A stretch of DNA of 56,867 bases, taken from the NCBI GenBank assembly GCA_964362915.1, contig CAYIGH010000002.1, forward strand, positions 16,757 through 73,623, read 5' to 3'. The notes beneath the pieces were generated by a model that saw only the letters and a program-made list of their open reading frames with translations, did no database searches and was not told the DNA's origin. The translations under genes were made by a program, and so were the position numbers. The first letter of the stretch is position 1, and each line of letters begins with the position of its first letter. This document shows positions 25,019 to 46,798 of the stretch, piece after piece. This DNA comes from Candidatus Woesearchaeota archaeon (GTDB lineage Archaea; Nanobdellota; Nanobdellia; Pacearchaeales; GW2011-AR1).

Positions 25019-25837
25019 ATGATAAAAACAACCCACAAAATAATTTTAGGCGACGCATTAAAAGTTTTAAAGACAATTCCAGATAATTCTATTGATCTAG
25101 TATTTGCAGATCCTCCATATAATATGTCTAAGAAAAAAGGTTTAGCATGGAAATATAGTAAACATGTAACTATGCAAGAAGATTGGGATATGTATTCTAA
25201 AGATGATTTCTTCAAATTTAATAAAGAATGGATAGCGGAATGTTTTAGGGCGCTTAAACATGGCGGCAGTCTTTGGATTTCAGGGAGTTTTCATAATATT
25301 TATCAAATGGGATTTATTATTCAGCAATTTCATCCTGAAATTAAAATAAATAATAGTATAGTTTGGTTTAAACCAAATGCCCAACCAAATATTACCTGTA
25401 GATTCTTTACAGAGAGTACAGAGCATTTAATATGGGCAACAAAGAACGGAGAAGGTAAAAAATGGAAATTCAATTATAAATGGACCAAAGATCATATTGA
25501 AGACTCATTAAATCCAAAAGGAAAACAAACAAGAAATGTTTGGAGTATTCCTTTAACACCAAAGAAAGAAAAATGGGCAGGTGAGCATCCAACACAGAAA
25601 CCATTTGAATTATTAAGAAGAATTATTTTATCTTCTACAAATGAAGGAGATACAGTTTTAGATCCGTTTGTTGGCTCTGGCACAACTTCTGCAGTTGCCA
25701 AATATTATGGTAGGAATTCAATAGGAATAGAAGTAAATAATAAATATCTTGATATAATAAAGAAAAGATTACAAAAAGAGCAAAAGACTCTTTCGGGAGA
25801 AGAACCAGAAATTATTTTTGAGGAGTTTAAGGATTAA
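25019..25837 (+). CDS. DNA methyltransferase, beta-class N6-adenine/N4-cytosine (PF01555-type)
   Basis: Motif IV VFADPPYN lies near the N-terminus and motif I DPFVGSGTTSAVA near the C-terminus. Confidence 0.9.
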   Translation: MIKTTHKIILGDALKVLKTIPDNSIDLVFADPPYNMSKKKGLAWKYSKHVTMQEDWDMYSKDDFFKFNKEWIAECFRALKHGGSLWISGSFHNIYQMGFIIQQFHPEIKINNSIVWFKPNAQPNITCRFFTESTEHLIWATKNGEGKKWKFNYKWTKDHIEDSLNPKGKQTRNVWSIPLTPKKEKWAGEHPTQKPFELLRRIILSSTNEGDTVLDPFVGSGTTSAVAKYYGRNSIGIEVNNKYLDIIKKRLQKEQKTLSGEEPEIIFEEFKD

Positions 25838-28582: not shown

Positions 28583-29542
28583 ATGCCAACATTATCATCA
28601 CCAAAGCATGGAAGCTTGCAGTTTTATCCTCGCAAGCGAGCATCTAGATTCTTGCCTAGTGTAAACTGGGATACTTTAGAGACACTCAAGACAGATTCTC
28701 CTTCAATTCTTGGTTTTATTGCTTATAAAGTAGGCATGGCAACAGCCATTGTTAAAAATACAACTGATAAAGCCATGACTTTTGGCAAGAGAATAGCAAT
28801 TCCAGTAACAATTCTTGAAACCCCTAACATGAAAATCTTTTCTGTGAGATTCTACAAAAATGGAAGAGTGATAAAAGATATTGTTGTTTCAAATGATAAA
28901 GAATTAAAACATAAGTTAAAAGTCCCCAAACATCCTGCAAGTTTAGACAAATCCCCGGAAGATTATGATGAAATTAGATTAATAGCTTATTCAATCCCAA
29001 AACAAAGTTCTGTAAAAAAAACACCTGATTTAATAGAAGTTGCAATTCATGCTGATAGTAAATTAGAATATGTAAAATCTTTAATAAATAAAGAGATTAG
29101 TTTAGCGGATTTTATAAAATATCCGCTATTAGATACAAGAGGTTTGACAAAAGGAAAAGGCCTTCAAGGTCCTGTAAAAAGATTTGGAATCGGTTTAAAA
29201 GCTCATAAATCTGAAAAAGGACGAAGGCGCCCAGGAAGTCTAGGCCCATGGCATCCAGCAAGAGTTACTTTTGTGACGCCGATGGCTGGCCAATTAGGCA
29301 TGTTTACAAGAATCAACTATAATAACAAGGTAATATTTTCTGGAAATATCAAAGAAAAAGATATCAATCCAAAATCAGGGTATAAGCATTATGGAAAAAT
29401 AAAAACCTCTTATATTATTCTTAATGGCTCTGTCCAAGGTCCTCCAAAAAGGCAAATTCTTCTTACTCCATCATTCCGCCCAACAAAATCACAAGCTAAA
29501 AAGAAATACGAGTTTATAGAACTAATAGGAGATACGAAATGA
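28583..29542 (+). CDS. rpl3: 50S ribosomal protein L3 (uL3)
   Basis: HGSLQFYPRKRA..., GKGLQGPVKRFG, WHPARV; first gene of the cluster. Confidence 0.95.
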   Translation: MPTLSSPKHGSLQFYPRKRASRFLPSVNWDTLETLKTDSPSILGFIAYKVGMATAIVKNTTDKAMTFGKRIAIPVTILETPNMKIFSVRFYKNGRVIKDIVVSNDKELKHKLKVPKHPASLDKSPEDYDEIRLIAYSIPKQSSVKKTPDLIEVAIHADSKLEYVKSLINKEISLADFIKYPLLDTRGLTKGKGLQGPVKRFGIGLKAHKSEKGRRRPGSLGPWHPARVTFVTPMAGQLGMFTRINYNNKVIFSGNIKEKDINPKSGYKHYGKIKTSYIILNGSVQGPPKRQILLTPSFRPTKSQAKKKYEFIELIGDTK

Positions 29543-29913
29543 AAAGCTTAAATTTAGAAGTTAAATTATTAGAGAGTAAAGAGGAACTGGATAAATTAGA
29601 AAGAGGAGATAGAATTATAATTTATGCAGTAGACTATCAAAAGGAAAAAGAATATTTAGGAATAGCAAGCTATAATAGTCTAAAAAGAAGTAGCGAATCC
29701 AGTGTTATGCCTCTTTTTAGATTTATTGGAATCGTTTCTAAAGAAAAAGATATCTCTTTTGTAGAAATATCTGCTTATGAAAATGAGTTTCATATTAGAG
29801 ATGGAGGGATATATACTAATTGTCCAAATTCTATAAAAATATTAAGAAAGAATAATAAAAAATATTTAGAAGAATTTAAAATGTTAAAGAAAGCATTTAG
29901 GAGGAATAAATGA
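29539..29913 (+). CDS. Orphan ORF interleaved between L3 and L4 (124 aa)
   Basis: ATGA overlaps at both ends and AGGAGA upstream. Shares N- and C-terminal motifs with 32539-32877. Confidence 0.6.
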   Translation: MKSLNLEVKLLESKEELDKLERGDRIIIYAVDYQKEKEYLGIASYNSLKRSSESSVMPLFRFIGIVSKEKDISFVEISAYENEFHIRDGGIYTNCPNSIKILRKNNKKYLEEFKMLKKAFRRNK

Positions 29914-30689
29914 AAGCCGCAGTTTTTGATATAAAAGGCAACAAAAATAAAGAAATAGATCTTCCTGAGTTATTCAACTCCAGAATAAGAGAAGATATTG
30001 TGCAAAAATGTTATGAAGCATCTAAATTTATAGGTATACATCCATATGCACCATATAAAGAAGCAGGAAAGAGGCATTCAGCTTCAGGCACAATTTCTCA
30101 TAGAAGGCATGAATGGAAAGGCCATTATGGCAGAGGTATTTCAAGAATACCAAGAAAAACAATGTATCGCAGAGGAACTCAGTTCTTTTGGGTTGGCGCA
30201 GAAGTCTCCAGTACAAGAGGCGGAAGAAGAGCACATCCGCCTAAATTAAACAAGAGGTTTAGAAAAATAAATAAAAAAGAAGAAAAAATTGCAATTAATT
30301 CAGCTATAGGCGCTACAGCAAACGAGCACTATCTAAAACAAAGATATTCAACACCTATAAAAATAAATCATAAACTTCCAATAATAATTGAATTTCAAAA
30401 TAATATAAAAACAAAAGACATAATAAATCTCTTAAAAAGTCTTTTGGGCGAATTTTCCAATATTGCATTAAAGAAAAAGTCAGTAAGAGCAGGCAAAGGC
30501 AAGCTAAGGGGAAGAAAATACAAATCAAATGCAGGTCTTTTATTAGTCAAATCAAGCTCTGAAAATATAAAAATGAAAGGCATAGATATAAAATCCGCTA
30601 ATGAAATAAAAATCTCAGACCTCTACCCATTAGGCAGACTCGCAATTTATACAGAAAAGGCCTTAGAAGAATTAGGAGGCAAAAAATGA
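29910..30689 (+). CDS. rpl4: 50S ribosomal protein L4 (uL4)
   Basis: ..HPYAPYKEAGKRHSASG..GRGISRIPR..GGRRAHPPK. Confidence 0.95.
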   Translation: MKAAVFDIKGNKNKEIDLPELFNSRIREDIVQKCYEASKFIGIHPYAPYKEAGKRHSASGTISHRRHEWKGHYGRGISRIPRKTMYRRGTQFFWVGAEVSSTRGGRRAHPPKLNKRFRKINKKEEKIAINSAIGATANEHYLKQRYSTPIKINHKLPIIIEFQNNIKTKDIINLLKSLLGEFSNIALKKKSVRAGKGKLRGRKYKSNAGLLLVKSSSENIKMKGIDIKSANEIKISDLYPLGRLAIYTEKALEELGGKK

Positions 30690-31279
30690 TTGTAGTAGAT
30701 ATAGAAACATCAGGCTTATATCCAGAAAAGCATGGAATCTGGCAGATAGGTGCACTTGATTTTTATAATCCAGAAAATACTTTTTTAGAAGAAGCAAGAA
30801 TAGACAATGAAGACCAAGTAGAAGTAGGCGCATTAAAAGTTACAGGAAAAACATCAGCTTATCTAAGAAATATAGGAAAGCAATCAGAAAAACAACTCTT
30901 AAAGCATTTCTTCACATGGACAAAAACAGCTAAAATAAAAAATCCTTTATGTCAAAATCCTCAATTTGATTTAGGTTTTATTACATACAAAGCAAGAAAA
31001 TACGAATTAAATTATCCACTTCATCATAGAGCTTTTGATTTGCATTCAATAGCACAATTAAGATATAGCCAATTAAATGGAGAACTGTTGTTAAAGGAGA
31101 ATCATAGCGATATGGGCTTGTCAAAAATATTAGAATTCTGCGGCTTAGAAGACAACAGGAAAGAGCACAGCGCATTAGAAGATGCAAAACTAACAGCAGA
31201 ATGTTTTTCAAGAATAGCCAAAGGCATATCCTTATTTAGCCAATACTCACACTATAAGGTTCCGGGGTATTTAAAATGA
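30686..31279 (+). CDS. DEDDh 3'-5' exonuclease (DnaQ/RNase T-like) embedded between L4 and L23
   Basis: ExoI VVDIETSG, ExoII NPQFDLGFI, ExoIII HSALEDAKL. ATGA overlaps with both neighbours. Confidence 0.8.
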   Translation: MIVVDIETSGLYPEKHGIWQIGALDFYNPENTFLEEARIDNEDQVEVGALKVTGKTSAYLRNIGKQSEKQLLKHFFTWTKTAKIKNPLCQNPQFDLGFITYKARKYELNYPLHHRAFDLHSIAQLRYSQLNGELLLKENHSDMGLSKILEFCGLEDNRKEHSALEDAKLTAECFSRIAKGISLFSQYSHYKVPGYLK

Positions 31280-31518
31280 TATTAAAACCAATAACTTCAG
31301 AAAAAGCAGTAAAAATGATTGAAATAGATAATACTATCTTATTCGAAATAGAAAGAAAATTCAGAAAGCCAGAGATAAAAAAAGAAGTAGAAAAAGTCTT
31401 CTCTGTAAAGGTTGAAGCAGTAAGAACCCATATTCAGGGAAACAAAAAATATGCTTATGTCAAGCTAAATAAAAAAAATCCTGCAATAGATGTGGCAACT
31501 AAATTAGGAATGATATAA
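31276..31518 (+). CDS. rpl23: 50S ribosomal protein L23 (uL23)
   Basis: ILKPITSEKAVKMIE..NTILFEIERKFRKPEIKKEVEKVFSVKV. Confidence 0.9.
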   Translation: MILKPITSEKAVKMIEIDNTILFEIERKFRKPEIKKEVEKVFSVKVEAVRTHIQGNKKYAYVKLNKKNPAIDVATKLGMI

Positions 31519-31519
31519 A

Positions 31520-31840
31520 ATGGAACAAAACAAAAAAATAAAATCAGTAAATGACAGAATAGATTTAAATAACTTAAATGAAGGAGACGTAGTTATGTTT
31601 GATCACTGCCCACATAGATACAATGAAAGATATGGTACTCTGGTTGTTCTTATGAGGAGATCTAGGGATTCCATATTAGAATTAGCATTTGAAGAAGATT
31701 CTTTAGTATTTTACTCTGGTAAAAATAATAAGGGACAATTTGGCAGAGGAGGACCTGCAGATATTGCAACCGAACATAAGAAAGGTAAATCAGTTTTATA
31801 TGTCTTAGTGAATAAAAAAATGTTGGAGTCAAATTTATAA
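31520..31840 (+). CDS. Orphan ORF interleaved between L23 and L2 (106 aa)
   Basis: TAA-A-ATG junctions on both sides. Carries the N-terminal LNNLNEGDVVMF motif. Confidence 0.55.
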   Translation: MEQNKKIKSVNDRIDLNNLNEGDVVMFDHCPHRYNERYGTLVVLMRRSRDSILELAFEEDSLVFYSGKNNKGQFGRGGPADIATEHKKGKSVLYVLVNKKMLESNL

Positions 31841-31841
31841 A

Positions 31842-32537
31842 ATGGGAAAGAACATAATATCACAAGCAAGAGGGCATGGAGGCCCAGCATACAGAGTAAA
31901 GAAAAGCGCATATAAATACAAGATAGGCTATCCAATGCAAGACGGAACAGCTAAAATAATAGATCTCATACATTCCCCTGCTCATTCAGCCCCCTTAATA
32001 AAAATATTAATTAACAGAGAAATATTCTATAACCCTGCATTCAATGGAGCATGCACAGATCAGGATATTATAATAGGGAAAAATGCAGTTATTGGAAATA
32101 TCTTAATGCTAAAGCAAATTCCTCTGGGAGAAAGAATCTATAATATTGAAAGAAATCCTGGCGATGGTGGAAAAATGATAAGGACAGCAGGCTCATCAGC
32201 AATGCTCTTCAAAAAATATCCTCACAATAAAATCGCAGTTTTAATGCCTAATAAGAAAGAATTGATCTTAAGTGGAGACTGTCGAGCAACAATCGGAGAA
32301 ATAGCAGGATCAGGAAGAAATTTAAAACCATTCATAAAAGCAGGAAAAAAGTTCTATAAAATGAAGTCTAGAAATAAGTTATGGCCTAGAACATCAGCTG
32401 TAAAGATGAATGCAGTAGATCATCCATTCGGCTCTGGCAGGGGAAAGCGTATTAAGTCTAAGATTGCAAAGAGAAATGCTCCTGCAGGAAATAGAGTAGG
32501 ACATATAAGGCCAAGAAGGACAGGAAGGAGAAAATAA
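31842..32537 (+). CDS. rpl2: 50S ribosomal protein L2 (uL2)
   Basis: ..PGDGGKMIRTAGSSA.., MNAVDHPFGSGRG. Confidence 0.95.
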   Translation: MGKNIISQARGHGGPAYRVKKSAYKYKIGYPMQDGTAKIIDLIHSPAHSAPLIKILINREIFYNPAFNGACTDQDIIIGKNAVIGNILMLKQIPLGERIYNIERNPGDGGKMIRTAGSSAMLFKKYPHNKIAVLMPNKKELILSGDCRATIGEIAGSGRNLKPFIKAGKKFYKMKSRNKLWPRTSAVKMNAVDHPFGSGRGKRIKSKIAKRNAPAGNRVGHIRPRRTGRRK

Positions 32538-32538
32538 A

Positions 32539-32877
32539 ATGTTAGAAAATATACCGCAATATATATACATAGAGGATAAGAAAGAAATATCCTCACTAAA
32601 TATAGGCAGCCCTGTACAATTATGCTTTACTTCATCATTATTTGACGTTATGTGGACCGCATATGGAGGATTAGTTAATGATAAATACGCCTTTATGAGA
32701 AAAGAAGAAAATTCAGATAATATATTGTCTTTTAGATGTAACAGAGATAAAATATCTATCTGGCAAGGAGCGATACTCGCGAGTGAAGAAGAGCGCATAA
32801 AAAACTCATTTATATACAAACAATCTTCTCCAGAATATGTAGAAATGTTAAAAATGCTGGAAAGAGCAGGATTATAA
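32539..32877 (+). CDS. Orphan ORF interleaved between L2 and S19 (112 aa)
   Basis: TAA-N-ATG junctions and AGGAAGGAG upstream. Motifs ISSLNIGSPVQLCF and IWQGAIL......IK...YVEMLKMLERA. Confidence 0.6.
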   Translation: MLENIPQYIYIEDKKEISSLNIGSPVQLCFTSSLFDVMWTAYGGLVNDKYAFMRKEENSDNILSFRCNRDKISIWQGAILASEEERIKNSFIYKQSSPEYVEMLKMLERAGL

Positions 32878-32878
32878 G

Positions 32879-33289
32879 ATGGCAAAACACAAAAAACCAG
32901 AAATTGTAAAGAAAGACTTTTTATACAGAGGGAAAACTTTAGAATATTTAAAAACACTAGATGTAAGAGAATCCGCAAGATTTCTGCCGTCAAGAAGCAG
33001 GCGTTTCGTACTAAAGAATTTCAATATAATTGAAAAGTTTATAAAAAGGTGTGAGAAAAAAATAGCTCAAAACAAGAAGATAAAAACACATTATAGGAAT
33101 TTAGTAATAGTTCCTAAGTTAGTAGGATTGATTATTGGAATTCATCAAGGAAGGAATTTCCAAGAAGTCGCAATTCTTCCAGAAATGATTGGCCATCGAC
33201 TAGGGGAATTTGCATTTACGCGATCTAAAGTTTTGCATGGAGCGGCAGGAATAGGATCAACAAAAGGCTCACGCGCATTAAAGAAATAA
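32879..33289 (+). CDS. rps19: 30S ribosomal protein S19 (uS19)
   Basis: ..GLIIGIHQGRNFQEVAILPEMIGHRLGEFAFTR. Confidence 0.95.
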   Translation: MAKHKKPEIVKKDFLYRGKTLEYLKTLDVRESARFLPSRSRRFVLKNFNIIEKFIKRCEKKIAQNKKIKTHYRNLVIVPKLVGLIIGIHQGRNFQEVAILPEMIGHRLGEFAFTRSKVLHGAAGIGSTKGSRALKK

Positions 33290-33290
33290 A

Positions 33291-33920
33291 ATGACAGGAC
33301 AAACAGTACAACAAGAGAAAAAACAAGAAGATAAGACACATCAGCACCACCATGAGGAAAAAACAGAAATGAAAGAAAAACCAATAGAACAGAAACCCAC
33401 AGGGCACCAGCAAGAGCATAAAAAGGAAAACGTTCAGGAAGAAAAAAAAGAAGAAAAATCAGCTCAAATTCAAAATCAAGAAATAAAGAAGGAAGAAAAG
33501 AAGCAGACTAAAAAAATCCAAAAAAAGGAAGAAGCCATAGCAAGAGGTAGAAGCATTCCCGTCTCAAAAAGACAATGTATGTATATATCTCAATTTATAA
33601 AAAATAAAAGCATAGATAAAGCAATAACTGATTTAGAAGAAGTAATAAAATTTAAGAGAGCAGTGCCTTTTAAAGGAGAGATTCCGCATAGAAAAGGAAA
33701 ACTTATGATGTCAGGAAGATATCCAATAAAGGCATCAAAGTACTTTATAAAAATTCTAAAAGGTTTGAGAGGAAATGCACTAATAAACGGCATGGATTTG
33801 GAAAAAACAAAGATAATATCTGGTTCAGCAAATTGGGCATCTCGCCCTATGAGAAAAGAAGGCAGGAAAGCAAAACGAACCCATGTTTTGATTAAGGCAA
33901 TGGAGGCCGAACAAGAATAG
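33291..33920 (+). CDS. rpl22: 50S ribosomal protein L22 (uL22) with ~80-aa K/E/Q/H-rich N-terminal extension
   Basis: The core starts near ARGRSIPVSKRQCMYISQFIKNK. The preceding residues are low-complexity. Confidence 0.9.
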   Translation: MTGQTVQQEKKQEDKTHQHHHEEKTEMKEKPIEQKPTGHQQEHKKENVQEEKKEEKSAQIQNQEIKKEEKKQTKKIQKKEEAIARGRSIPVSKRQCMYISQFIKNKSIDKAITDLEEVIKFKRAVPFKGEIPHRKGKLMMSGRYPIKASKYFIKILKGLRGNALINGMDLEKTKIISGSANWASRPMRKEGRKAKRTHVLIKAMEAEQE

Positions 33921-33921
33921 T

Positions 33922-34281
33922 ATGGCAGAAGAAAGAAAACCAGAATTAGAAGTAGGAAAAGAATATATGGTAAATAACATGAATTTTGTATCATCAGTAA
34001 GAGGATTCACAGTGGTAAGGGCAAAATATCTCGGTTATGGAATTTTAAATAAAGAAATAAGTCACCTTTTCTCATTTGAAAGAAATGATCAAACAGACTA
34101 TTTTCTTAGACTACGGAAAGACAAAGATGAATTCATTGAATGTCACAATATGTTTATATGTCCTGATGACTCTATTTCAAACTCTCCCATTCAATTATTA
34201 AAAAATAAGCTAAAAACAATTCCAAATGAAGAAAGATCTCAATTATTAGAGATATTAAAACAATTAGGAGAACAACTATAA
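33922..34281 (+). CDS. Orphan ORF interleaved between L22 and S3 (119 aa)
   Basis: TAG-T-ATG junction. Motifs ELEVGKEYMV and C-terminal QLLEILKQLGEQL. Confidence 0.55.
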   Translation: MAEERKPELEVGKEYMVNNMNFVSSVRGFTVVRAKYLGYGILNKEISHLFSFERNDQTDYFLRLRKDKDEFIECHNMFICPDDSISNSPIQLLKNKLKTIPNEERSQLLEILKQLGEQL

Positions 34282-34283
34282 AA

Positions 34284-34988
34284 ATGGAAGCAAAAAAATT
34301 CGTAGATTTTAAAAAAGAAGAATTAGGAGTTAAAGAATATGTAAAGAAAGAATTGGGAAAAGGAAGAATTAGTAACGTATCAATTGAGTATACTCCTATA
34401 GGCGAAAAGATTGTTATAGCAACAAGCAAGCCAGGATTAGTAATCGGAAGAAGAGGAGAAAAAATAGATATCCTTACGAAGATGCTAAAGAAAAGATTCA
34501 AACTTGATAATCCACATATAGAAATAAGAGAAATACAGGATCCAAGACTAGATGCCCAGCTGGTTGCTGATGAAATAGCACTTCTTTTAGAAAGAAAAGG
34601 CTCTTTAAAATTCAAAGTAATTGCTTATAAAATGCTCCAAGAAATTATTAAAGCAGGAGCATTAGGCATAGAAATTGTTCTTTCAGGCAAATTACCTAGT
34701 GATAGAGCAAGAAGATGGAGATTTGCACAGGGCTATCTGAAAAAAACAGGAGATCCTTCTAAAGTCGTGGATAGAGCACAAGCACAGGCAAAAACAATTG
34801 CGGGAATTATTGGCATAGAAGTCAGCTTATTGCATCCAGATGCGCCGATTCATGACAGAATAATTGTAGATGATGCTATGAGATCAAAAATAAAAATATC
34901 TGCAATAAAAAGCCCTGACTTGCCCCAGGAAAACAAAACTGAAAAAATAAAAAAAGTAACTAGAAAAATTAATAAGGGAGAAAAATAA
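34284..34988 (+). CDS. rps3: 30S ribosomal protein S3 (uS3)
   Basis: KH domain ..IATSKPGLVIGRRGEKID.. and a C-terminal S3 domain. Confidence 0.95.
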   Translation: MEAKKFVDFKKEELGVKEYVKKELGKGRISNVSIEYTPIGEKIVIATSKPGLVIGRRGEKIDILTKMLKKRFKLDNPHIEIREIQDPRLDAQLVADEIALLLERKGSLKFKVIAYKMLQEIIKAGALGIEIVLSGKLPSDRARRWRFAQGYLKKTGDPSKVVDRAQAQAKTIAGIIGIEVSLLHPDAPIHDRIIVDDAMRSKIKISAIKSPDLPQENKTEKIKKVTRKINKGEK

Positions 34989-34989
34989 G

Positions 34990-35196
34990 ATGACTATTTT
35001 AAAATATAAGGATATTAAGAAAATGGACAACAAGGAAAGGGAAGCCAAGTTGAAGGAATTAAGATTTTCTCTTACAAAGTCAAATGTCACAGCAAATAAA
35101 GCAAATGCTAAAACCAAAGAAATTAAAAGGGCTATTGCCCGCCTATTGACATTCAATACCTTAAATAAGAAGGAGGTATTGAAAGCAAAGAAATAA
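34990..35196 (+). CDS. rpl29: 50S ribosomal protein L29 (uL29)
   Basis: ..EREAKLKELRFSL...KEIKRAIARLLT. Confidence 0.9.
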   Translation: MTILKYKDIKKMDNKEREAKLKELRFSLTKSNVTANKANAKTKEIKRAIARLLTFNTLNKKEVLKAKK

Positions 35197-35199
35197 ACA

Positions 35200-35499
35200 A
35201 TGGATATAAACCCAAAATTCGGTTTACCGACCGAATCAGATGTGTTCGAGGAAATCGCTAAAAGTGAGCAGCACATCAAGGTAGCAACAGAAAAACGGCG
35301 TTATGGCAAGACTATAACGCTAGTTACTGGATTAAGCAGAAACCTGGATATTAAGGGAATAGCAAAAACCCTTAAAGAGAAGCTGGCCTGTGGCGGCACT
35401 GTAAAAAATGACGTCATAGAACTGCAGGGAAACCACCGGAAGAATGTAAGGCCTATTTTGGCAAAACTAGGCTTTCCAGAAGATTCGATAAGCGATTAA
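35200..35499 (+). CDS. Translation initiation factor SUI1/aIF1
   Basis: IKVATEKRRYGKTITLVTGL....LKEKLACGGTVKNDVIELQGNHR. Confidence 0.9.
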   Translation: MDINPKFGLPTESDVFEEIAKSEQHIKVATEKRRYGKTITLVTGLSRNLDIKGIAKTLKEKLACGGTVKNDVIELQGNHRKNVRPILAKLGFPEDSISD

Positions 35500-35536
35500 T
35501 CAGCATATCTGATAAGCAATAGAGGTAGAAAGAAAT

Positions 35537-35851
35537 ATGGAGAAGGAAAAGCAGCAGAAGGAGAAGAAGAAAGACATAGTTAGAACAATGAATATCCCTA
35601 CTAGAGGCAGAATATTCAAGGGAACAATTACAAAGAAATTTCCTACACGAGTAGTAGTAGAATTCGAAAGAACAGTCTATATATCAAAATATGAACGATA
35701 TTATAAGAAAAAAACAAGATTACACGCATATCTCCCTCAAGGATTAAACGTAAATGTTGGAGATTACGTAAAACTACAAGAATGCAGGCCTTTAAGCAAG
35801 ATAATTCATTTTATAGTAATAGAAAAAATTTCTAAGGAAAAAATACAATGA
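35537..35851 (+). CDS. rps17: 30S ribosomal protein S17 (uS17)
   Basis: RGRIFKGTITKKFPTRVVVEFERTVYISKYERY..GDYVKLQECRPLSK. Confidence 0.9.
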   Translation: MEKEKQQKEKKKDIVRTMNIPTRGRIFKGTITKKFPTRVVVEFERTVYISKYERYYKKKTRLHAYLPQGLNVNVGDYVKLQECRPLSKIIHFIVIEKISKEKIQ

Positions 35852-36249
35852 AGGCAATAAACGCAAAAGTTACTCGCGGTTTGAATATAGGAAGCCACGT
35901 TTTGGCATCAGACAACAGTGGAGCAAGAATTGTAAAAATTACTTCAGTTGTCCATGGAAAATCTAAAAAAGGAAGACAGCAATATGCAAAAGTATCTGAT
36001 TGGGTCAAAGTATCTGTAAGAGCAGGCAAGCCAGATATGAAAGGCCAAGTCTTTGATGCAGTAGTAATAAGGCAAAGGAAATCTTATAGAAGAAGAACAG
36101 GAGAAAGAGTCTGTTTTGAAGATAACGCGGTTGCTCTCTTAAAAGACGACAAAGGCAATCCTAAGGGCACACAGATCAAAGGCCCAGTGGCAAGGGAGGT
36201 TCAGGAGCGATGGCAATCTGTTGCAAAAATCGCTCAATTTGTTCTTTAA
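35848..36249 (+). CDS. rpl14: 50S ribosomal protein L14 (uL14)
   Basis: ..LASDNSGARIVKI....VVIRQRK...G..V.FEDNA. Confidence 0.95.
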   Translation: MKAINAKVTRGLNIGSHVLASDNSGARIVKITSVVHGKSKKGRQQYAKVSDWVKVSVRAGKPDMKGQVFDAVVIRQRKSYRRRTGERVCFEDNAVALLKDDKGNPKGTQIKGPVAREVQERWQSVAKIAQFVL

Positions 36250-36250
36250 T

Positions 36251-36715
36251 ATGAAATCTTCATTCTCAACATCATGGCTATCTTCCGTTCAGCCAAGAAA
36301 ACAAAGAAAATACATTTATAATGCTCCTTTACATATAAAGCATAAGTTTTTAAGTGCACAATTATCAAAACAATTAAGAAAAAAGCATGGCAAGAGGAAT
36401 CTTCCCCTCAGGAAAGGGGATGAGGTGCTTATCATGCGCGGAAGTTTTAGGAAGAAAAAGGCAAAAATCACTTCTATAGAGCTTAAAGATTCTAGAGTTA
36501 TTCTGGAAGGAATCCAAAGATCAAAGAAGGATGGAACCAAAGTCAATGTATATTTCCATCCAAGCAAGCTTCAAATTCAATCTTTGAATTTAGACGACAA
36601 AAAAAGACTTTTAGCCATAGAAAGGAAATTGCCAAATAAGAATCCTAAGCAAGAGTCTAAAGAAAAATCCATGGAGAAGAAAAATGCACTTAAAGAGACA
36701 AAAGGCAGCAATTAA
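36251..36715 (+). CDS. rpl24: 50S ribosomal protein L24 (uL24)
   Basis: KOW motif LRKGDEVLIMRGSFRKKKAKI. The ATG at 36251 is preferred over the track start 36221. Confidence 0.9.
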   Translation: MKSSFSTSWLSSVQPRKQRKYIYNAPLHIKHKFLSAQLSKQLRKKHGKRNLPLRKGDEVLIMRGSFRKKKAKITSIELKDSRVILEGIQRSKKDGTKVNVYFHPSKLQIQSLNLDDKKRLLAIERKLPNKNPKQESKEKSMEKKNALKETKGSN

Positions 36716-37304
36716 GTTGCCAATTCCAAGAAAAGGGACAAAATATATAGCCAGAGCGTTGTCAAATCTTAATAATTCTGTTACAGTCGTAATAGCTGTA
36801 AGAGACATGCTGAAATTAGCTAGGACTGCCGCAGAAGTAAAAAAGATGATTCACAGAAAACTTCTTAAAATAAATGGCAAAAATGTAAAGGACTATAGGG
36901 AAAGTATAAGACTTTTTAATTTATTTGAAGCAGATAAACCCTACATTTTAACATTATTACCAACTGGAAAGTTCACTTTAGAAGAATCAAAAGAAAAGAA
37001 CATAAGACTTTGTAAAATCATAAATAAAAAATTAATAAAAAATAATTCTATACAATTAAATTTGCATGACGGTTCAAACATTATTTCCAAGGAGCCTATT
37101 TCAGTTGGAGATTCTGTTCTTCTTGATTTAGCAGGCAAAATAAAAAAGCATATTCCTCTGGAGAGAGGAAGAGAGGCAATAATAATCGAGGGCAAATATC
37201 TAGGTCTAAATGGAAAAATAGAAAATGTGAAAGATAATTTAATAACCATCAAGATAGAAGAAAAAACAACAATGCTCCCCAAAAGGCAGGTAATTGCACG
37301 ATGA
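36684..37304 (+). CDS. rps4e: 30S ribosomal protein S4e (eS4)
   Basis: MHLKRQKAAIKLPIPRKGTKYI... Confidence 0.9.
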   Translation: MHLKRQKAAIKLPIPRKGTKYIARALSNLNNSVTVVIAVRDMLKLARTAAEVKKMIHRKLLKINGKNVKDYRESIRLFNLFEADKPYILTLLPTGKFTLEESKEKNIRLCKIINKKLIKNNSIQLNLHDGSNIISKEPISVGDSVLLDLAGKIKKHIPLERGREAIIIEGKYLGLNGKIENVKDNLITIKIEEKTTMLPKRQVIAR

Positions 37305-37831
37305 ATCAAAGTTTACAGCAAGAAATAAAAATGGAAAATCCATCAAGAAAGATAAAGATAGAAAAAGTAGTTCTTAGCTGTGGCGCCACAGGAACAGATC
37401 TGGAAAAATCAAGAAAGCTTTTAGAGTTAATCTCAGGCATGAAAGCTCAAATTCTTACATCAAGAAAAAGAATACCAAATTTCGATGTTCGTCCTGGATT
37501 AGAAGTTGGCACTAGAACAACACTAAGAGGAGAAAAAGCATTAAATTTATTAAAAAGACTGCTTGGAGCAATAGGTAATACCCTCTCAGAAGAACAGATC
37601 TCAGAAAATCACTTTTCTTTTGGAATAAAGGAATATATAGAAATTCCCGGTTTGGAATATCAGAGAGATATAGGGATTCGTGGTCTTAATATTACAATAA
37701 ATTTCATTAGGCATGGAGCGAGAGTTAAAAGAAAAAAGATAAAATCAGGCAAATTACCAAAAAAGCAGCATGTGAGAAGAGAAGAAATAATTAAATTTAT
37801 GGAGGAAAACTTCCAAACGAAGTTTGTTTAA
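37301..37831 (+). CDS. rpl5: 50S ribosomal protein L5 (uL5)
   Basis: IKIEKVVLSCG.....RKRIPNFDVRPGLEVGTRTTLRG. Confidence 0.95.
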   Translation: MNQSLQQEIKMENPSRKIKIEKVVLSCGATGTDLEKSRKLLELISGMKAQILTSRKRIPNFDVRPGLEVGTRTTLRGEKALNLLKRLLGAIGNTLSEEQISENHFSFGIKEYIEIPGLEYQRDIGIRGLNITINFIRHGARVKRKKIKSGKLPKKQHVRREEIIKFMEENFQTKFV

Positions 37832-37872
37832 GATGATAGATAAATCAAAGTTAATTGAGGAAAAAATATAAT

Positions 37873-38301
37873 ATGACAGACAAACCTTTAGAAAGAAAAT
37901 TGATTTCAGGAAGAAAGTATTTAGTTGGCCCTGAAAATAAGGAAATGGTTTATTATGGAAAATCTCCTTATAATTATGAAGTATTTTGCAATTGGGAAAT
38001 CTTAGATGGAGGACCAATAGAATGTCTTCAGATAGAAGCTAATAATTTTTTATTGAATGAAAACCATGTAGAAGATAGAACTGGAAAATATTTTGAGCGA
38101 ACTATAAGATTTACAAGCCCTAAGCAATTAGGTCAAAAAGACAACAGCAACATATCATTCGCCAAAATGTTTGAAAGAACTGCAAAAATTGTTAGATGTG
38201 AATTAAGAGGAGATTCAGTAGAATATGAATTAAAAAAAATTCATGAAAGCTTACTTTATGTAAAATTGAGTGCAATATTGGAAGGAGGAGAATCAAAATG
38301 A
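37873..38301 (+). CDS. Orphan ORF interleaved between L5 and S14 (142 aa)
   Basis: ATG at 37873 with GAGGA upstream. ATGA overlap with the S14 start. N-terminal [10 protein letters not shown] motif. Confidence 0.55.
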
Positions 38302-38528
38302 CAGCAAGCGACTGGAATAAAATATTAAGGCAGTTAAAAAGCAAACCAGCAGTAATGCAGAAATTTCTAAAGCATTGCAAGCCAAAAAATCGCTCCACAG
38401 GAATAGCAAGAAAAAAATGTGAAAGATGCGGCAGATTCGGCGCCCATTTAAATCAGTATAATCTAAACCTCTGCAGGCAGTGCTTCCGTGAAATTGCGGA
38501 AGAAATCGGCTTCGAAAAATACAGCTAA
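38298..38528 (+). CDS. rps14: 30S ribosomal protein S14 (uS14, Zn type)
   Basis: [40 protein letters not shown] lies upstream of 38298. An alternative internal start at 38355 would give the usual ~57 aa. Confidence 0.9.
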
Positions 38529-38529
38529 A

Positions 38530-38904
38530 ATGTCACACGATGTAATTGCAGACGCGCTCAACAAGATAATGAATGCCAAGAGAGCAGGCAAATCAAGTTT
38601 GGAAATAAGCTTTCGCTCAAAATTTCTTATTTCAATTCTAGCCCTTGCAAAATTTAAAGGATACATTAAAGACTATAAACTAACAGGAAAAATACTAAAA
38701 ATAGAATTAGGCAGTCTTAACAAATGTAATGCAATAAAGCCGAGATTTACATTAACAGTTGAGGAAATAGAAAAATATGAGAAAAGATATCTCCCGGCAA
38801 AAGATTTCGGCATTTTAATACTAACAACCTCAAAAGGCTTAATGACAAATCAAACCGCAAAAGAAAAAAATATAGGGGGGAGCTTAATAGCTTATATGTA
38901 CTGA
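38530..38904 (+). CDS. rps8: 30S ribosomal protein S8 (uS8)
   Basis: MSHDVIADALNKIMNAKRAGK... The ATG at 38530 is preferred over the track start 38488. Confidence 0.95.
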   Translation: MSHDVIADALNKIMNAKRAGKSSLEISFRSKFLISILALAKFKGYIKDYKLTGKILKIELGSLNKCNAIKPRFTLTVEEIEKYEKRYLPAKDFGILILTTSKGLMTNQTAKEKNIGGSLIAYMY

Positions 38905-38905
38905 A

Positions 38906-39448
38906 ATGAGAAAATTAATTACAGAAGAAATAGAAATTCCTAAAGAAATAAATTGCGAATATAAAGACAAATTTTTAATCTGTAAAAAGGATTCTATAGA
39001 GTTAAAAAGGATGATAAGTCTTCCCACAATTTCGCTCTCGATTAAAGATAATAAAATATTACTAACTGCTCTAAAGGCAGGCAAGTATGAAAAAAAAACA
39101 ATATTAGCTTTCATAAATCACATAAAAAATATTTTCCTCGGCCTTAATGAAAAATTCATTTATCATCTAGAAGCATGCAACGTCCACTTTCCAATGACCT
39201 TAAAAATTGAAGGCAATAAATTAGCAATAAACAATTTTCTCGGGGAAAAAACACCCCGCTATGCAGAAATTCTCCAAAATGTCGAGGTCCAAATAAAAGG
39301 CAGCTCAATTACTGTTTTATCTCATGATAAAGAAGCCGCAGGCCAGACAGCTGCGAATTTTGAAAAAGCTACAAAAGTAAAAAATAGAGACAGAAGAATC
39401 TTTCAGGATGGAATATTTATTGTTGAAAAGCCCGGAGATAAAAAATAA
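38906..39448 (+). CDS. rpl6: 50S ribosomal protein L6 (uL6)
   Basis: Two-domain L6 pattern, ..NNFLGEKTPRYAEI... Confidence 0.9.
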   Translation: MRKLITEEIEIPKEINCEYKDKFLICKKDSIELKRMISLPTISLSIKDNKILLTALKAGKYEKKTILAFINHIKNIFLGLNEKFIYHLEACNVHFPMTLKIEGNKLAINNFLGEKTPRYAEILQNVEVQIKGSSITVLSHDKEAAGQTAANFEKATKVKNRDRRIFQDGIFIVEKPGDKK

Positions 39449-39810
39449 TGGCAAGAAATTTTTTAAGACAAGACTTCATGAGGCATATCAAACTAGGCAA
39501 GCATAGAAAGAAATTGCAGAAATGGAGGCGACCTAAAGGAAGGCATAGTAAAATGAGGAATAAAAGAAAAGGTTATCCAGTTTCTCCAGGAGCAGGATAT
39601 AAAAAATCAAGAAATGAAAGAGGCAAAATTTTAAGACTATATCCCAAATTAGTCACAAATATAAAAGATTTAACAGGCGCAGATAAGGATAATATTATAA
39701 TAATCGCAAGTAGAGTAGGCGCAAGAAAAAGAATAGAACTAATCAAAAAAGCAGAAGAGATGAAACTAAAAATTTTAAACATTAAGGAGAGAATAAAAAA
39801 TGAATCTTAA
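39448..39810 (+). CDS. rpl32e: 50S ribosomal protein L32e (eL32)
   Basis: KWRRPKGRHSKMRNKRKGYP..PGAGYKK. Confidence 0.9.
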   Translation: MARNFLRQDFMRHIKLGKHRKKLQKWRRPKGRHSKMRNKRKGYPVSPGAGYKKSRNERGKILRLYPKLVTNIKDLTGADKDNIIIIASRVGARKRIELIKKAEEMKLKILNIKERIKNES

Positions 39811-40207
39811 TAAAAAGAAGGAATTAGCAGCGCGCACAATCAATATAGGCAAAAAAAGAATAGTTTTCAATATAAACAGATTGGATGAAATAAAAGAAGC
39901 AATTACAAAACAAGACATAAAAGATCTCATTAAAACTGAAGCAATTATTATAAAAGAAATAAAAGGCAGAAAAGTAAAAGTAAAAAGGAAAACAAGAATA
40001 AGAGCGGGCAGCAGAAGGAGAATAATTATAAATAAAAAAAGAGAGTATATTAACCTTGTTAGAAAATTAAGAAATTATCTCAAAGCACTGAAGAAACAAG
40101 GAAAAATTTCCAAAGTGAATAATATAAAAATTCTGACAGAAATAAAAGCCAGGAAAATTAAGAACATATCTCAAATAAGAGATATGTTAATTAAGGAGCC
40201 AAAATGA
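39800..40207 (+). CDS. rpl19e: 50S ribosomal protein L19e (eL19)
   Basis: LNKKKELAARTINIGKKRIVFN....IKGRKVKVKRK. Confidence 0.9.
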   Translation: MNLNKKKELAARTINIGKKRIVFNINRLDEIKEAITKQDIKDLIKTEAIIIKEIKGRKVKVKRKTRIRAGSRRRIIINKKREYINLVRKLRNYLKALKKQGKISKVNNIKILTEIKARKIKNISQIRDMLIKEPK

Positions 40208-40677
40208 TAAAATTAAGAAGACGCAGATTAGAAAAAAGAACAGATTATAAGGCAAGATTAGCATTGCTTAAATTTAAGAAAGCGCGGCTAGTAGCTAGAA
40301 AAACAAATAAGCATATCATAGTCCAGATTGTTGAAACAAAACAAGCCCAGGACAGAGTTATTACAGGGCTGACTTCCCAAGTGCTTTTAGAAAAAGGCTG
40401 GCCTAAAAATGGCTCTGGGAGTTTAAAGAATAAAGCGGCAGCATATCTAGTAGGTTTTTTAATAGGAAAAATAGCTCAAGAAAAAGGAGTAAAATCAGCC
40501 ATATTCGATATAGGGATGCATAGAAACATTCATAAATCCAGACTTTATGCCATTCTGAAAGGCGCAATTGATGCAGGATTAGATATCCAGCATTCAAAAG
40601 AAGTCTTGCCTTCAAATGAAGAAATACAAAAAAACGAAAAATTCAGAAATATAATCCATAAAATAACTAAAGAATAA
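40204..40677 (+). CDS. rpl18: 50S ribosomal protein L18 (uL18)
   Basis: RRRRLEKRTDYKARLALLK..ARLVARKTNKHIIVQIV. Confidence 0.9.
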   Translation: MIKLRRRRLEKRTDYKARLALLKFKKARLVARKTNKHIIVQIVETKQAQDRVITGLTSQVLLEKGWPKNGSGSLKNKAAAYLVGFLIGKIAQEKGVKSAIFDIGMHRNIHKSRLYAILKGAIDAGLDIQHSKEVLPSNEEIQKNEKFRNIIHKITKE

Positions 40678-40678
40678 A

Positions 40679-41464
40679 ATGGCAGAGAAAGAAACAAAAA
40701 ACAATCCCAAGAGCGTTATAGAAGCTGTTCCAGAAGCAGTAGAAGAATTAGCAAAAGAGATATCTACATCTGAGGAAATCACAATAAAAGAAGAAAAATT
40801 AACAGCCAAAAAAGAAGCGATTATATCATGGATACCCAAAACAAAACTCGGAAAGCAAGTTAAAGCTGGTGAAGTAAAAAATATAGACATAATTTTAGAA
40901 GAAGGAAAAAAAATCCTAGAACCAGAGATCATAGATTCACTTCTAAACATAGAATCAGAATTGCTTTTAGTAGGACAAGCCAAAGGAAAATTCGGCGGAG
41001 GAAAAAGACGTGCATGGAGGCAAACTCAAAAAAAGACGCAAGAAGGGAATATTATTACATTCTCAACAATGGTCGTTGTCGGCGATAAAAATGGGTATGT
41101 AGGTATCGGCTATGGTAAAGCAAAAGAAACGCTTCCAGCAAGGGAGAAGGCATTAAGACAGGCAAAGCTAAACATAATAAAAATAAATAGAGGATTTGAA
41201 GATCCTGCAGACACCGCAAAAAACGACCCCCACACCATCCCATTCAAAGTAGAAGGTAAATGTGGAAGTGTAAGAATTACTTTATTTCCTGCTCCAAGAG
41301 GGACAGGTCTTGCAGTTGCTGATGAATGCAAAAAAATATTGCGATTAGCAGGCATAAAAGATATTTATAGTAGGACGATAGGACAGACAAGAACAACATT
41401 CAATTTGGCAAAAGCATGTCTAGATGCCCTAATAAAAACAAAAAAAATAATAAGACAAAAATGA
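40679..41464 (+). CDS. rps5: 30S ribosomal protein S5 (uS5) with acidic/Lys-rich N-terminal extension
   Basis: ..FSTMVVVGDKNGYVGIGYGKAKETLPAREKALRQAK.. Confidence 0.95.
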   Translation: MAEKETKNNPKSVIEAVPEAVEELAKEISTSEEITIKEEKLTAKKEAIISWIPKTKLGKQVKAGEVKNIDIILEEGKKILEPEIIDSLLNIESELLLVGQAKGKFGGGKRRAWRQTQKKTQEGNIITFSTMVVVGDKNGYVGIGYGKAKETLPAREKALRQAKLNIIKINRGFEDPADTAKNDPHTIPFKVEGKCGSVRITLFPAPRGTGLAVADECKKILRLAGIKDIYSRTIGQTRTTFNLAKACLDALIKTKKIIRQK

Positions 41465-41880
41465 TAATAGCAATAAGAATTTCAGGTTTAGTGAATATGT
41501 CTGGAGAAATGCAGGAAACGCTTTATAGATTAAGATTAAGAAAAAAATATAGTGCAGTCCTTCTAAAACCAACGAAAATAAATCTTAAAGTACTTAAAAA
41601 AATAAGAAATCACATAGCATATGGCGATATAAACAAAGAAACTCTTAAAGAATTAGTCGAAAAAAGGGGAATTTTTTTAAATAAATCAAAAAAAGCCAAT
41701 ATCGAAAAGATCGTGGAGAATTTAGAGAAAGATATATCATCTCCAGAAATAAAGCCATTTTTTAGATTGCATCCTCCAAGAGGAGGCATAGATGCTAAAA
41801 AACATTTCGGCGTTTCAAAAAAAGCAGTTTTAGGCGATAATAAAGATAAAATAAATGATCTTTTAAGGAGGATGCTATGA
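41461..41880 (+). CDS. rpl30: 50S ribosomal protein L30 (uL30)
   Basis: MIIAIRISGLVNMSGEMQETLYRLRLRKK. The ATG at 41461 is preferred over the track start 41416. Confidence 0.9.
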   Translation: MIIAIRISGLVNMSGEMQETLYRLRLRKKYSAVLLKPTKINLKVLKKIRNHIAYGDINKETLKELVEKRGIFLNKSKKANIEKIVENLEKDISSPEIKPFFRLHPPRGGIDAKKHFGVSKKAVLGDNKDKINDLLRRML

Positions 41881-42323
41881 AGCTTAAAAAACGACATAAG
41901 GCATCGCGATTTAGGGGTTCTCACACACACGGAAGAGGATTTAAGAAGAAAGCAAGAGGTTCAGGCCATCGTGGCGGAAAAGGCATGGCAGGAACAGGAA
42001 AAAGAGCAGACCAAAGAAAAACCTTAGTGCTTAACTTATATGGGAACGATTATTTTGGAAAAGATAAAGCTCTTAGAAGAAAACAAAAAAATAGGTTGAA
42101 TCAAATCAACATTCAGGAAATTATGCAAAATCTAAATTCCTATATAAAATCCGGAAAGGCCAAAGAATTAAAAGATCATATAGAACTAAATTTTAAGGGC
42201 TATAAAATTTTAGGTTTAGGAGAAGTAAGCAAAAAAATTAAAATAAATGCCTCAGCTGCATCAAAATCAGCTCTAGAAAAAATTAAAAAAGCAGGCGGAG
42301 ATATAATAATAGAAAATGCGTAA
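41877..42323 (+). CDS. rpl15: 50S ribosomal protein L15 (uL15)
   Basis: RFRGSHTHGRGFKKKARGSGHRGGKGMAGTGKRA. Confidence 0.95.
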   Translation: MKLKKRHKASRFRGSHTHGRGFKKKARGSGHRGGKGMAGTGKRADQRKTLVLNLYGNDYFGKDKALRRKQKNRLNQINIQEIMQNLNSYIKSGKAKELKDHIELNFKGYKILGLGEVSKKIKINASAASKSALEKIKKAGGDIIIENA

Positions 42324-46324: not shown

Positions 46325-46798
46325 ATGGAAGTTAAAGAATTTGATGGAGATATAGATAGTAGGAAAGTCAAAACAATTATGAAGCTAACAGATAGAGTAA
46401 AACAATGGTTTGCCAAACCTAAAAATAAAGATACTCCAACTCCTCATTTTGAGGAAAGAAATGGTGTTCTTAGCGTGCATCAAGATTCTGCTGATAATAC
46501 TCGGTATCGAGTTATGTTAAATCCCTCTTTTATTGGGAGTATAGCCTTGCCTTCTGGTCAAAACTTTCTCTCTTCGGAAAATGGCATCGCCGTCCTCCCT
46601 ATGACCATAGATAATAATACCTATGTAATAAATAACTCTATCAGTGGTGCATATCTGTATTTACCTTTTTCTGGAGCTACGGTCTTAGTAGCTAAAGGTG
46701 TTTGGGGAGACTGGTTTCCTAAACAATTTTTTAATTCAAAAATAACTTTTTACACAGGAGCTACTTCTTACCAAAGCCCAAAAAACCAAAAACCTTAA
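46325..46798 (+). CDS. Orphan ORF between SBDS and Rrp4 (157 aa)
   Basis: Intact ORF with no recognisable family. Confidence 0.45.
   Translation: MEVKEFDGDIDSRKVKTIMKLTDRVKQWFAKPKNKDTPTPHFEERNGVLSVHQDSADNTRYRVMLNPSFIGSIALPSGQNFLSSENGIAVLPMTIDNNTYVINNSISGAYLYLPFSGATVLVAKGVWGDWFPKQFFNSKITFYTGATSYQSPKNQKP

Follow-up and report, generated by a model that had tools for sequence, protein, structure and literature searches.

What are genes of no recognisable family doing between the members of the L3-to-L15 cluster of ribosomal protein (r-protein) genes, which is treated as the most stable gene order in prokaryotes? The question is raised by a 56,867-nucleotide (nt) stretch of a Candidatus Woesearchaeota archaeon genome (GenBank assembly GCA_964362915.1, contig CAYIGH010000002.1, positions 16,757 to 73,623 of the forward strand; hereafter the window). 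Its r-protein super-operon reads L3-L4-L23-L2-S19-L22-S3-L29-SUI1-S17-L14-L24-S4e-L5-S14-S8-L6-L32e-L19e-L18-S5-L30-L15, followed by SecY, in a region of ~32% GC content. An earlier reading of the letters alone, here called the original prediction, had noted five orphan open reading frames (ORFs) in this operon, which we name oL3, oL23, oL2, oL22, and oL5 after the r-protein gene upstream of each. Our analysis describes the cluster as a hot spot of orphan-gene turnover in one DPANN clade, and we consider it reasonably probable that the orphans are horizontally mobile cassettes, accessory in role, which exploit the expression of the operon and code for binding proteins that are not enzymes. A slot is the junction between two consecutive r-protein genes, written L3/L4 and so on; families A and B are described below.

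28583..42323, + strand: host r-protein super-operon, from the ORF list, Pfam matches for L3, L4, L22, and L5, and the Pfam table of an identical contig (L084)
29539..29913, + strand: oL3, 124 residues, family A, L3/L4 slot, ATGA overlap at both ends
30686..31279, + strand: DEDDh 3'-5' exonuclease, 197 residues, L4/L23 slot, ATGA overlaps at both ends
31520..31840, + strand: oL23, 106 residues, L23/L2 slot, family A motif IDLNNLNEGDVVMF in the N-terminal ~30 residues
32539..32877, + strand: oL2, 112 residues, core member of family A, L2/S19 slot
33922..34281, + strand: oL22, 119 residues, family B, L22/S3 slot
37832..37872, + strand: spacer of 41 nt between L5 and oL5, from the DNA alignment of the window with locus L092
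37873..38301, + strand: oL5, 142 residues, borderline relative of family A, L5/S14 slot

All five orphans are intact in the ORF list at the positions originally given, and the junctions are indeed ATGA overlaps or TAA/TAG-N-ATG, with GGAG or GAGG upstream of most orphans, as had been described. The claim that they have no recognisable family also holds, as searches of Pfam, NCBIfam, PHROGs, and PADLOC gave no match for any of them, and the PDB returned no family match either. By our estimate from base composition, the chance of a 100-codon open frame in ~32% GC DNA is ~4e-4, so the five are not chance open frames. An assembly artefact or chimera can be eliminated as the source of the arrangement because it recurs, at no less than 99.9% identity, in independent assemblies of five replicate Hainich groundwater samples. 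Their composition, said to match that of the host, is slightly more AT-rich (GC fraction 0.25-0.32 vs a mean of ~0.33 for the r-protein genes). Isoelectric points (pI) are 9.3 for oL3 and 8.7 for oL23, and 5.0, 5.7, and 6.8 for the other three. The ATG at 37873 is favoured as the start of oL5 over a TTG at 37855 by the orthologs in loci L001 and L092, and the 3' end of oL5 carries the GGAGG motif that precedes S14. The exonuclease is a sixth inserted, non-ribosomal gene, absent from the earlier list. It matches Pfam RNase_T (2e-14), the PHROG "DNA polymerase exonuclease subunit" (1.7e-22), and PADLOC DEDDh (2.6e-17), and homologs occupy the same L4/L23 slot in 10 of 80 relatives as well as in loci L089 and L092.

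The relatives were obtained by scanning one genome per species, which gave 80 loci from metagenome-assembled genomes labelled Pacearchaeota or Woesearchaeota whose L2 proteins are 63-81% identical. Numbers such as L001, L002, or L092 denote the loci of these relatives' genomes and are distinct from r-protein names such as L2 or L3. We scored 22 slots and counted a slot as occupied when it held at least 120 bp of extra DNA. Inserts are carried by 188 junctions in 19 of the 22 slots, most often in L14/L24 (30 of 75 genomes), L23/L2 (29 of 79), and L30/L15 (24 of 55), and then in S17/L14 (17 of 76), L3/L4 (15 of 76), L4/L23 (13 of 78), L22/S3 (13 of 79), L2/S19 (11 of 80), and L5/S14 (11 of 72). 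Each slot filled in the window is thus occupied in 14-37% of relatives, and 20 of the 80 have no occupied slot at all. Close relatives commonly differ. Loci L001 and L002, with 91% identical r-proteins, have 4 of 10 occupied slots in common; L025 and L035, at 87.5%, have 1 of 6, and L057 and L080 have none of 6. With the window, L001 shares only the oL3 ortholog (33% identical), the oL5 ortholog, and the exonuclease, and it holds unrelated ORFs in L23/L2 and L2/S19; L092 shares only oL5 and the exonuclease and has seven other slot ORFs. The view that the orphans are long-standing operon members rather than fresh insertions does not survive these comparisons, and the proposed synteny check gave a divided answer: the same slots are occupied in some relatives, patchily and often by different ORFs.

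The inserts are built like native genes. A single co-directional ORF fills at least 70% of the gap in 158 of the 188 cases and tandem co-directional ORFs do so in 17, the remaining 13 gaps being largely filter artefacts; in just one gap is an antisense ORF the sole filling. Insert junction distances fall between -4 and +2 nt in ~84% of cases upstream and ~78% downstream, with the native modes of -4, -1, and +1. The r-protein gene after a cassette is preceded by GGAG or GAGG in 77% of cases; for native junctions the figure is 48%, and for random positions 12%.

Synonymous sites show that some of these genes have travelled apart from their neighbours. Between oL5 and its ortholog in locus L092 (P0051) protein identity is 72%, and the synonymous divergence (dS) is 0.31, compared with 0.95 to saturation in the flanking r-protein genes. 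At identical residues the same codon is used in a fraction of 0.83, vs 0.55 for 19 r-protein genes (range 46-67%; Fisher p = 3e-8). Nucleotide identity between the window and L092 is 85-90% inside oL5 and 70-80% outside. This excess of synonymous similarity marks horizontal exchange of oL5. Further pairs behave in the same way:

128-residue L4/L23 cassette, loci L060 and L074: same-codon fraction 0.90, r-protein baseline 0.58, p = 3e-12
Exonuclease, loci L002 and L060: 0.71, baseline 0.48, p = 1e-7
250-residue L24/S4e protein, loci L002 and L005: 0.75, baseline 0.59, p = 5e-5
L14/L24 ORF, loci L013 and L020: 0.65, baseline 0.42, p = 5e-4
oL5 and its ortholog in locus L001: 0.76, baseline 0.53, p = 7e-4

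The excess in some exonuclease pairs suggests that this gene, too, has been exchanged horizontally. Protein evolution in the slots is fast, with nonsynonymous divergence (dN) of 0.47-0.81 for slot ORFs vs 0.05-0.36 for neighbour genes in the same genome pairs. The dN/dS check that had been proposed gave an answer in part: the ratio, omega, is 0.47 for oL5 and its L092 ortholog, the one pair with unsaturated dS. Taken at face value, this omega means constraint, but relaxed.

Are the orphans one paralog family? Pairwise BLAST among the five returned nothing significant. We built an eight-member seed around oL2 from the ORFs between r-protein genes of the relatives' loci; the five seed members also present in the public protein database formed alignment A2, whose profile was run exhaustively over 1.84 billion representative proteins. 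At E<=1e-3 it matched 43 of them, all stand-alone, 102-159 residues long, and aligned end to end. Word-indexed protein searches return only 3-5 close relatives per family, because these proteins are too diverged for the index. A metagenome scan for relatives of oL5 found none. An independent profile of 42 public proteins, free of any window sequence, was then scored against 194 slot ORFs. It matches oL2 over its full length (E = 7e-22), oL3 over residues 1-119 (E = 6.5e-9; hhalign probability 89% over 105 columns), and oL23 over residues 1-35 only (E = 1.5e-6; hhalign 78% over 29 columns), the rest of oL23 beyond its first ~30 residues having diverged past recognition. For oL5 the value is E = 1.7, with its L001 ortholog at 4.8e-6, and oL22 does not match the family A profile (hhalign vs family A only 13%). 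As judged by these profiles, oL3, oL2, and oL23 belong to one new family of ~110 residues, A. The original claim of a single paralog family thus holds for oL3 and oL2 and for the N terminus of oL23; oL22 falls into a separate family, and oL5 is borderline. The co-linear C-terminal block that had been seen in oL3 and oL2 does align to the same profile columns.

Family A is marked by the motifs E-L-x-x-L-x-x-G-D-x-V, Y-E-G, and a C-terminal Y-x6-L-x2-A-G-L. In an alignment of 44 sequences at ~20% identity only G23, F52, and L107 are near-invariant, and none of the acidic, His, or Cys residues is invariant, a pattern that suits a binding protein better than an enzyme. The iterated profile converges at 54 members. 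Every further borderline match among 6246 six-frame ORFs is a + strand slot ORF. At 8 bits or more the profile picks up 0.2% of 4016 control ORFs but 9.2% of the slot ORFs not assigned to family A; this excess indicates that the family extends beyond what hidden Markov models can prove. Matches of the profile in Pfam and among PDB sequences (only E>=0.06) are at noise level. Members lie in six slots, L3/L4, L23/L2, L2/S19, L22/S3, L5/S14, and L6/L32e, and nearest neighbours are mostly found in other slots, with no clear slot-specific clades except a small L3/L4 group of oL3 and the members in L001 and L015. Database members also occupy the L23/L2 and L3/L4 slots of other archaea, and some lie outside r-protein operons: between RNase HII and SMC, after a PKD protein, and beside a Lar-like gene. 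In locus L056, 42%-identical paralogs lie in L2/S19 and L18/S5.

By the same kind of evidence oL22 belongs to a second family, B, without detectable relation to family A. It has six local members including oL22, in slots L23/L2, L2/S19, and L22/S3, with more in locus L092, and its motifs are an N-terminal L-x-x-G-x-x-Y and a C-terminal ...ILKELGEQI. Beyond these two families the slots hold a great variety of ORFs: the 194 slot ORFs fall into 137 sequence clusters, and 120 have no detectable relative even among the 80 related genomes. Among 150 slot ORFs a small minority match Pfam or PHROG families (14 and 13 families, respectively, most by one or two ORFs). The annotated cargo includes NUDIX, MazG, HD, reverse transcriptase, and nucleotidyltransferase, families typical of accessory or mobile genes. 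Unrelated families include helical ones in S17/L14 and L14/L24 and a Zn-ribbon in L30/L15. The median pI of slot ORFs is 6.9, which is proteome-like, vs 10.2 for the r-proteins of the window.

Two kinds of insert in relatives have no counterpart in the window. The L30/L15 Zn-ribbon family (L011:18884-19084, L012:19201-19413, and 15 other loci) comprises slot-faithful proteins of 58-105 residues with a CxCG...CxxC pattern, an acidic middle, and a Lys-rich tail, and it could be a genuine lineage-specific operon member. Inserts of 1.8-3 kb lie in the L24/S4e slot of three close relatives (L001:9427-10953, L002:11087-13192, and L005:14808-17299). All three encode a conserved ~250-residue protein without a known family. 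Those of L001 and L002 add a reverse transcriptase (RVT_1, PHROG 1423), split into two ORFs in L002, and that of L005 adds a nucleotidyltransferase and a 132-residue ORF, which we guessed from sequence to be HEPN-like, a guess that no family match confirms.

Structure prediction supports family A as a real protein family. The AlphaFold2 model of oL2, computed from the 44-sequence alignment, has a predicted local distance difference test (pLDDT) score of 94.9 and a predicted template modelling (pTM) score of 0.86, and runs from a short helix through seven strands to a second short helix, ending with one further strand and a C-terminal helix. Foldseek returned nothing significant for it in the PDB (best E = 0.87, template modelling (TM) score <=0.41) or BFVD (best E = 0.18). 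The prediction describes family A as a new beta-rich family of ~110 residues with a confident predicted fold for which no structural relative was found in the PDB or BFVD. The oL22 model is moderate (pLDDT 62.7), with N-terminal strands and C-terminal helices in a layout generally like that of family A; for this low-confidence model the best Foldseek match in the PDB, at E = 0.03, is not significant. The structural check thus assigned neither the oL2 nor the oL22 model to a known family, in keeping with the original description of the orphans. The sub-threshold matches of both models and of the N-terminal motif lean towards SH3/Tudor-like barrels (bacterial L19, RimP, MBT/Tudor); none is significant, and we treat such a barrel for families A and B as a lead only.

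The account that we favour would run as follows. The five ORFs and the exonuclease would be dispensable cassettes that colonise cistron junctions of the super-operon in a Pacearchaeota-like DPANN clade. They stem from several unrelated families, with three members of family A and one of family B in the window. A cassette consists of an open frame alone, without its own promoter, terminator, or spacer; its transcription would come from read-through of the operon, and its translation from the stop/start coupling (ATGA, TAAnATG) that native genes use. Its last codons usually supply the Shine-Dalgarno-like motif of the downstream r-protein gene, so that essential downstream genes would stay expressed, and only insertions that preserve coupling would survive. 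Removal would call for a precise deletion, which is hard to achieve without uncoupling the downstream r-protein genes; this may help cassettes to persist and may keep open even decaying copies such as oL23. The turnover of cassettes by gain, loss, replacement, and horizontal exchange among lineages far outpaces the divergence of the operon. The products are probably soluble proteins that bind rather than catalyse, and their role would be accessory and might lie in conflict or host interaction. Of the three possibilities that the original prediction had raised, a cassette family propagating inside highly expressed operons is the one favoured by the patchy and volatile occupancy, by families that span several slots, and by the exchange seen at synonymous sites.

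Candidate routes by which cassettes might get in are junction microhomology and recombination that uses the conserved flanks. The start of a cassette tends to repeat the opening bases of the gene after it; oL5 and S14 both begin ATGACAG, and a third, degenerate copy of this start lies in the spacer at 37832-37872. This spacer contains a degenerate duplicate of the 5' end of oL5 (ATGATAGATAAATC vs ATGACAGACAAACC) and a GAGG motif, and the L092 ortholog starts directly after L5 without it. Read as a frame, the spacer forms a 12-codon mini-ORF (MIDKSKLIEEKI), which begins with this degenerate version of the oL5 start. Among inserts that look recent, some carry a duplicate of 8-13 nt of the junction or of the opening codons of the gene that follows. 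Flanking direct repeats of at least 12 nt are seen in 4 of 149 inserts vs 7 of 2000 in the null set, a small excess with weak statistical support, and an X-drop breakpoint analysis was underpowered, with 5 usable cases only. In locus L060 (271-390) a 120-nt stretch of L4 is 100% identical to that of L074, although the 3' ends of the two L4 genes are only ~75% identical and the genomes come from different studies. The tract lies near the 128-residue cassette that these loci share and adjoins a scaffold gap (a run of N); it hints at recombination through conserved flanks, an assembly artefact being the alternative.

Several observations weigh against the cassette account. We found the cassettes associated with no recombinase or recombination site, nor with any hairpin or clear target-site duplication. 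Scans of viral contigs for oL5, oL2, oL22, and oL3 found no copies, hence no vector. Near-identical cassettes were not found in any two different slots; movement from slot to slot is therefore inferred from the distribution of families only, and families A and B may instead reflect ancient paralogy with differential loss. The L30/L15 Zn-ribbon, one family each in S17/L14 and L14/L24 (clusters 5 and 6), and the L4/L23 exonuclease keep to their slots, and such slot-faithful families could be vertically inherited, lineage-specific operon genes. The dN/dS estimates other than that for oL5 and L092 rest on saturated dS and are unreliable.

A bolder form of the cassette account, which we regard as speculative and rather unlikely, would make the cistron junctions landing pads for a new kind of mobile element: a bare ORF that brings neither a recombination site nor an enzyme, seamlessly inserted, perhaps through junction microhomology or recombination at the near-universal flanks, and then locked in by coupling to essential downstream genes, with families A and B as new folds selected for an action on the translation apparatus or in host/virus conflict.

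The main rival is that the ORFs are passengers with no protein function, whose frames stay open because a premature stop would uncouple the essential gene downstream. Their sequence would drift freely for as long as the frame persists. In favour of this, 120 of the 194 slot ORFs have no detectable relative; almost every gap is taken up by a single open frame whose coupling resembles that of native genes, dN is higher than in neighbour genes by a factor of 3-5, with an apparent omega of 0.4-0.7, and oL23 retains the N-terminal family motif only. It is harder to see how a functionless frame would keep the conserved motifs of family A, with covariation enough for a pLDDT of 95 from 44 sequences at ~20% identity, or why members of the family persist outside coupled r-protein slots; the omega of the unsaturated pair is also well below 1. 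We therefore do not extend the idea to family A taken together; for singletons and oL23 it is plausible, and as a general explanation it is unlikely.

The original prediction had also offered lineage-specific ribosome-associated proteins, or dedicated escorts or chaperones of the adjoining r-protein. A co-transcribed and translationally coupled arrangement with r-protein genes, as read from the sequence, would suit such partners, as would the basic character of oL3 and oL23, the non-significant hints of a barrel of the SH3/Tudor-like kind that is often met in translation proteins, and the grouping of the L3/L4 members of the window, L001, and L015. A ribosomal protein of the lineage would not be expected to be missing so widely (the window's slots are each empty in most relatives, and 20 genomes have no insert), and the median pI of slot ORFs is far below that of the r-proteins. 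As for escorts, family A follows L3, L23, L2, L22, L5, and L6 and also occurs in non-ribosomal contexts, and therefore shows no client fidelity; family B is found in three slots, cassettes have been exchanged horizontally independently of their supposed clients, and no match to any r-protein or chaperone family was found. Both forms of this explanation are disfavoured, and we consider them quite improbable.

Less probable still are free-standing, selfish genes of the homing-endonuclease kind, which would cut an empty r-protein junction and be copied in by repair ("intronless homing"). Sites between the most conserved genes of the genome, a patchy distribution, exchange with similarity confined roughly to the ORF, the mosaic tract beside the common cassette in L060 and L074, and the 8-13 nt junction duplications would all fit. 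However, no match to LAGLIDADG, GIY-YIG, HNH, His-Cys, or PD-(D/E)xK was found in Pfam, PHROGs, or the PDB, family A is without invariant acidic, His, or Cys residues, and many unrelated families behave alike. Integron-type or other site-specific cassettes, moved by a recombinase on a structured site, share the small, promoterless, hyper-diverse ORFans expressed from an upstream promoter, and a serine recombinase and an IS91-type transposase do lie elsewhere in the window, but this explanation is largely refuted by the absence of attC-like sites and scarcely credible, since the cassettes carry no non-coding DNA, their ends show no excess of attC-like hairpins (the mean minimum-free-energy z-score of the last 90 nt is 0.02, less structured than the -0.63 of r-protein gene ends), no integrase adjoins the operon, where the flanking genes are a methylase, a MORC-like ATPase, and SecY, the window's recombinase genes are >12 kb away, and 19 junctions are used rather than a single attachment site.

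The surroundings of the operon show variation of their own. The block upstream of L3 (25019-28387) is variable and defence-like and also holds a 202-residue antisense ORF without a family; its annotated genes are

25019-25837: N6/N4 DNA methylase, upstream of L3 and followed by an 83-residue ORF
26205-27776: MORC-like GHKL ATPase, upstream of L3 (PADLOC MzaB, 3.7e-10)

Loci L089 and L090 have a different methylase and a Bsp6I-type restriction enzyme in this position. Elsewhere in the window lie genes for an IS91-type Y2 (HUH) transposase (2790-3788, + strand) and a large serine recombinase (54781-56283, + strand), and a DDE_3 transposase domain was detected among the window ORFs, its position not located. 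With the serine recombinase and transposases present, no tyrosine recombinase appears among the best 25 of 29 Pfam families elsewhere in the window. The L22 protein is extended at its N terminus (33291-33545, + strand) by ~85 low-complexity residues with much Lys, Glu, Gln, and His, and its Pfam L22 domain begins only at residue 84. In one relative (L081:6547-7561) S17 directly follows L22, and S3, L29, and SUI1 are missing from their usual place. In the exosome operon, SBDS and Rrp4 are separated by a 157-residue ORF without a Pfam match (46325-46798, + strand), which has spacers of 39 and 89 nt and does not match the family A profile. It may be the same kind of insertion in a second conserved operon.

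We found no description of this phenomenon in the literature searched, though absence there is no proof of novelty. The L3-to-L15 cluster is a standard syntenic block for the phylogenomics and binning of uncultured archaea. The results bear on how operons tolerate insertions, on how newly acquired genes come to be expressed in genome-reduced symbionts, and on whether conserved flanks promote horizontal transfer between diverged lineages. They also define two uncharacterised small-protein families, one with a confident predicted fold unmatched in the PDB or in viral structure predictions, and suggest that passenger ORFs might become locked in where their translation is coupled to that of essential genes.

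Among known systems, the morons of lambdoid phages come close: they too are single small ORFans between conserved co-oriented genes, patchy in relatives, exchanged, and slightly AT-rich. Morons, however, have their own promoter and terminator, for which junctions of -4 to +2 nt leave no room, and the host here is an essential r-protein operon of a cellular genome. Integrons have been reported in Archaea, and their cassettes resemble the inserts as promoterless, very diverse, strain-variable ORFans of ~100-150 residues served by a resident upstream promoter; integron cassettes stack at one attI, whereas these occupy 19 scattered junctions, with no attC or hairpin and no adjacent integrase. The free-standing seg and mob homing endonuclease genes of T4-like phages likewise lie between highly conserved genes, are patchy, and spread by recombination, but the present ORFs come from many unrelated families and have no nuclease motif or invariant catalytic residues. 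With the eukaryotic r-protein chaperones (Rrb1 for uL3, Acl4 for uL4, Syo1 for uL5/uL18, Sqt1, and Yar1) the only common ground is the notion that a protein outside the ribosome is produced alongside an r-protein, since the orphans show no WD40, TPR, ARM, or ankyrin homology and no fidelity to a single r-protein, and are dispensable in many relatives. At the level of fold, the N-terminal pattern L-x-x-G-D-x-V-x-I ... Y-E-G ... F recalls the SH3-like or "Royal family" barrels (Tudor, MBT, chromo, KOW, and bacterial L19); these are set apart by the lack of a significant match (best Foldseek E of 0.87 for family A and 0.03 for the low-confidence family B model, TM at most 0.41) and by the additional strands and C-terminal helix of family A.

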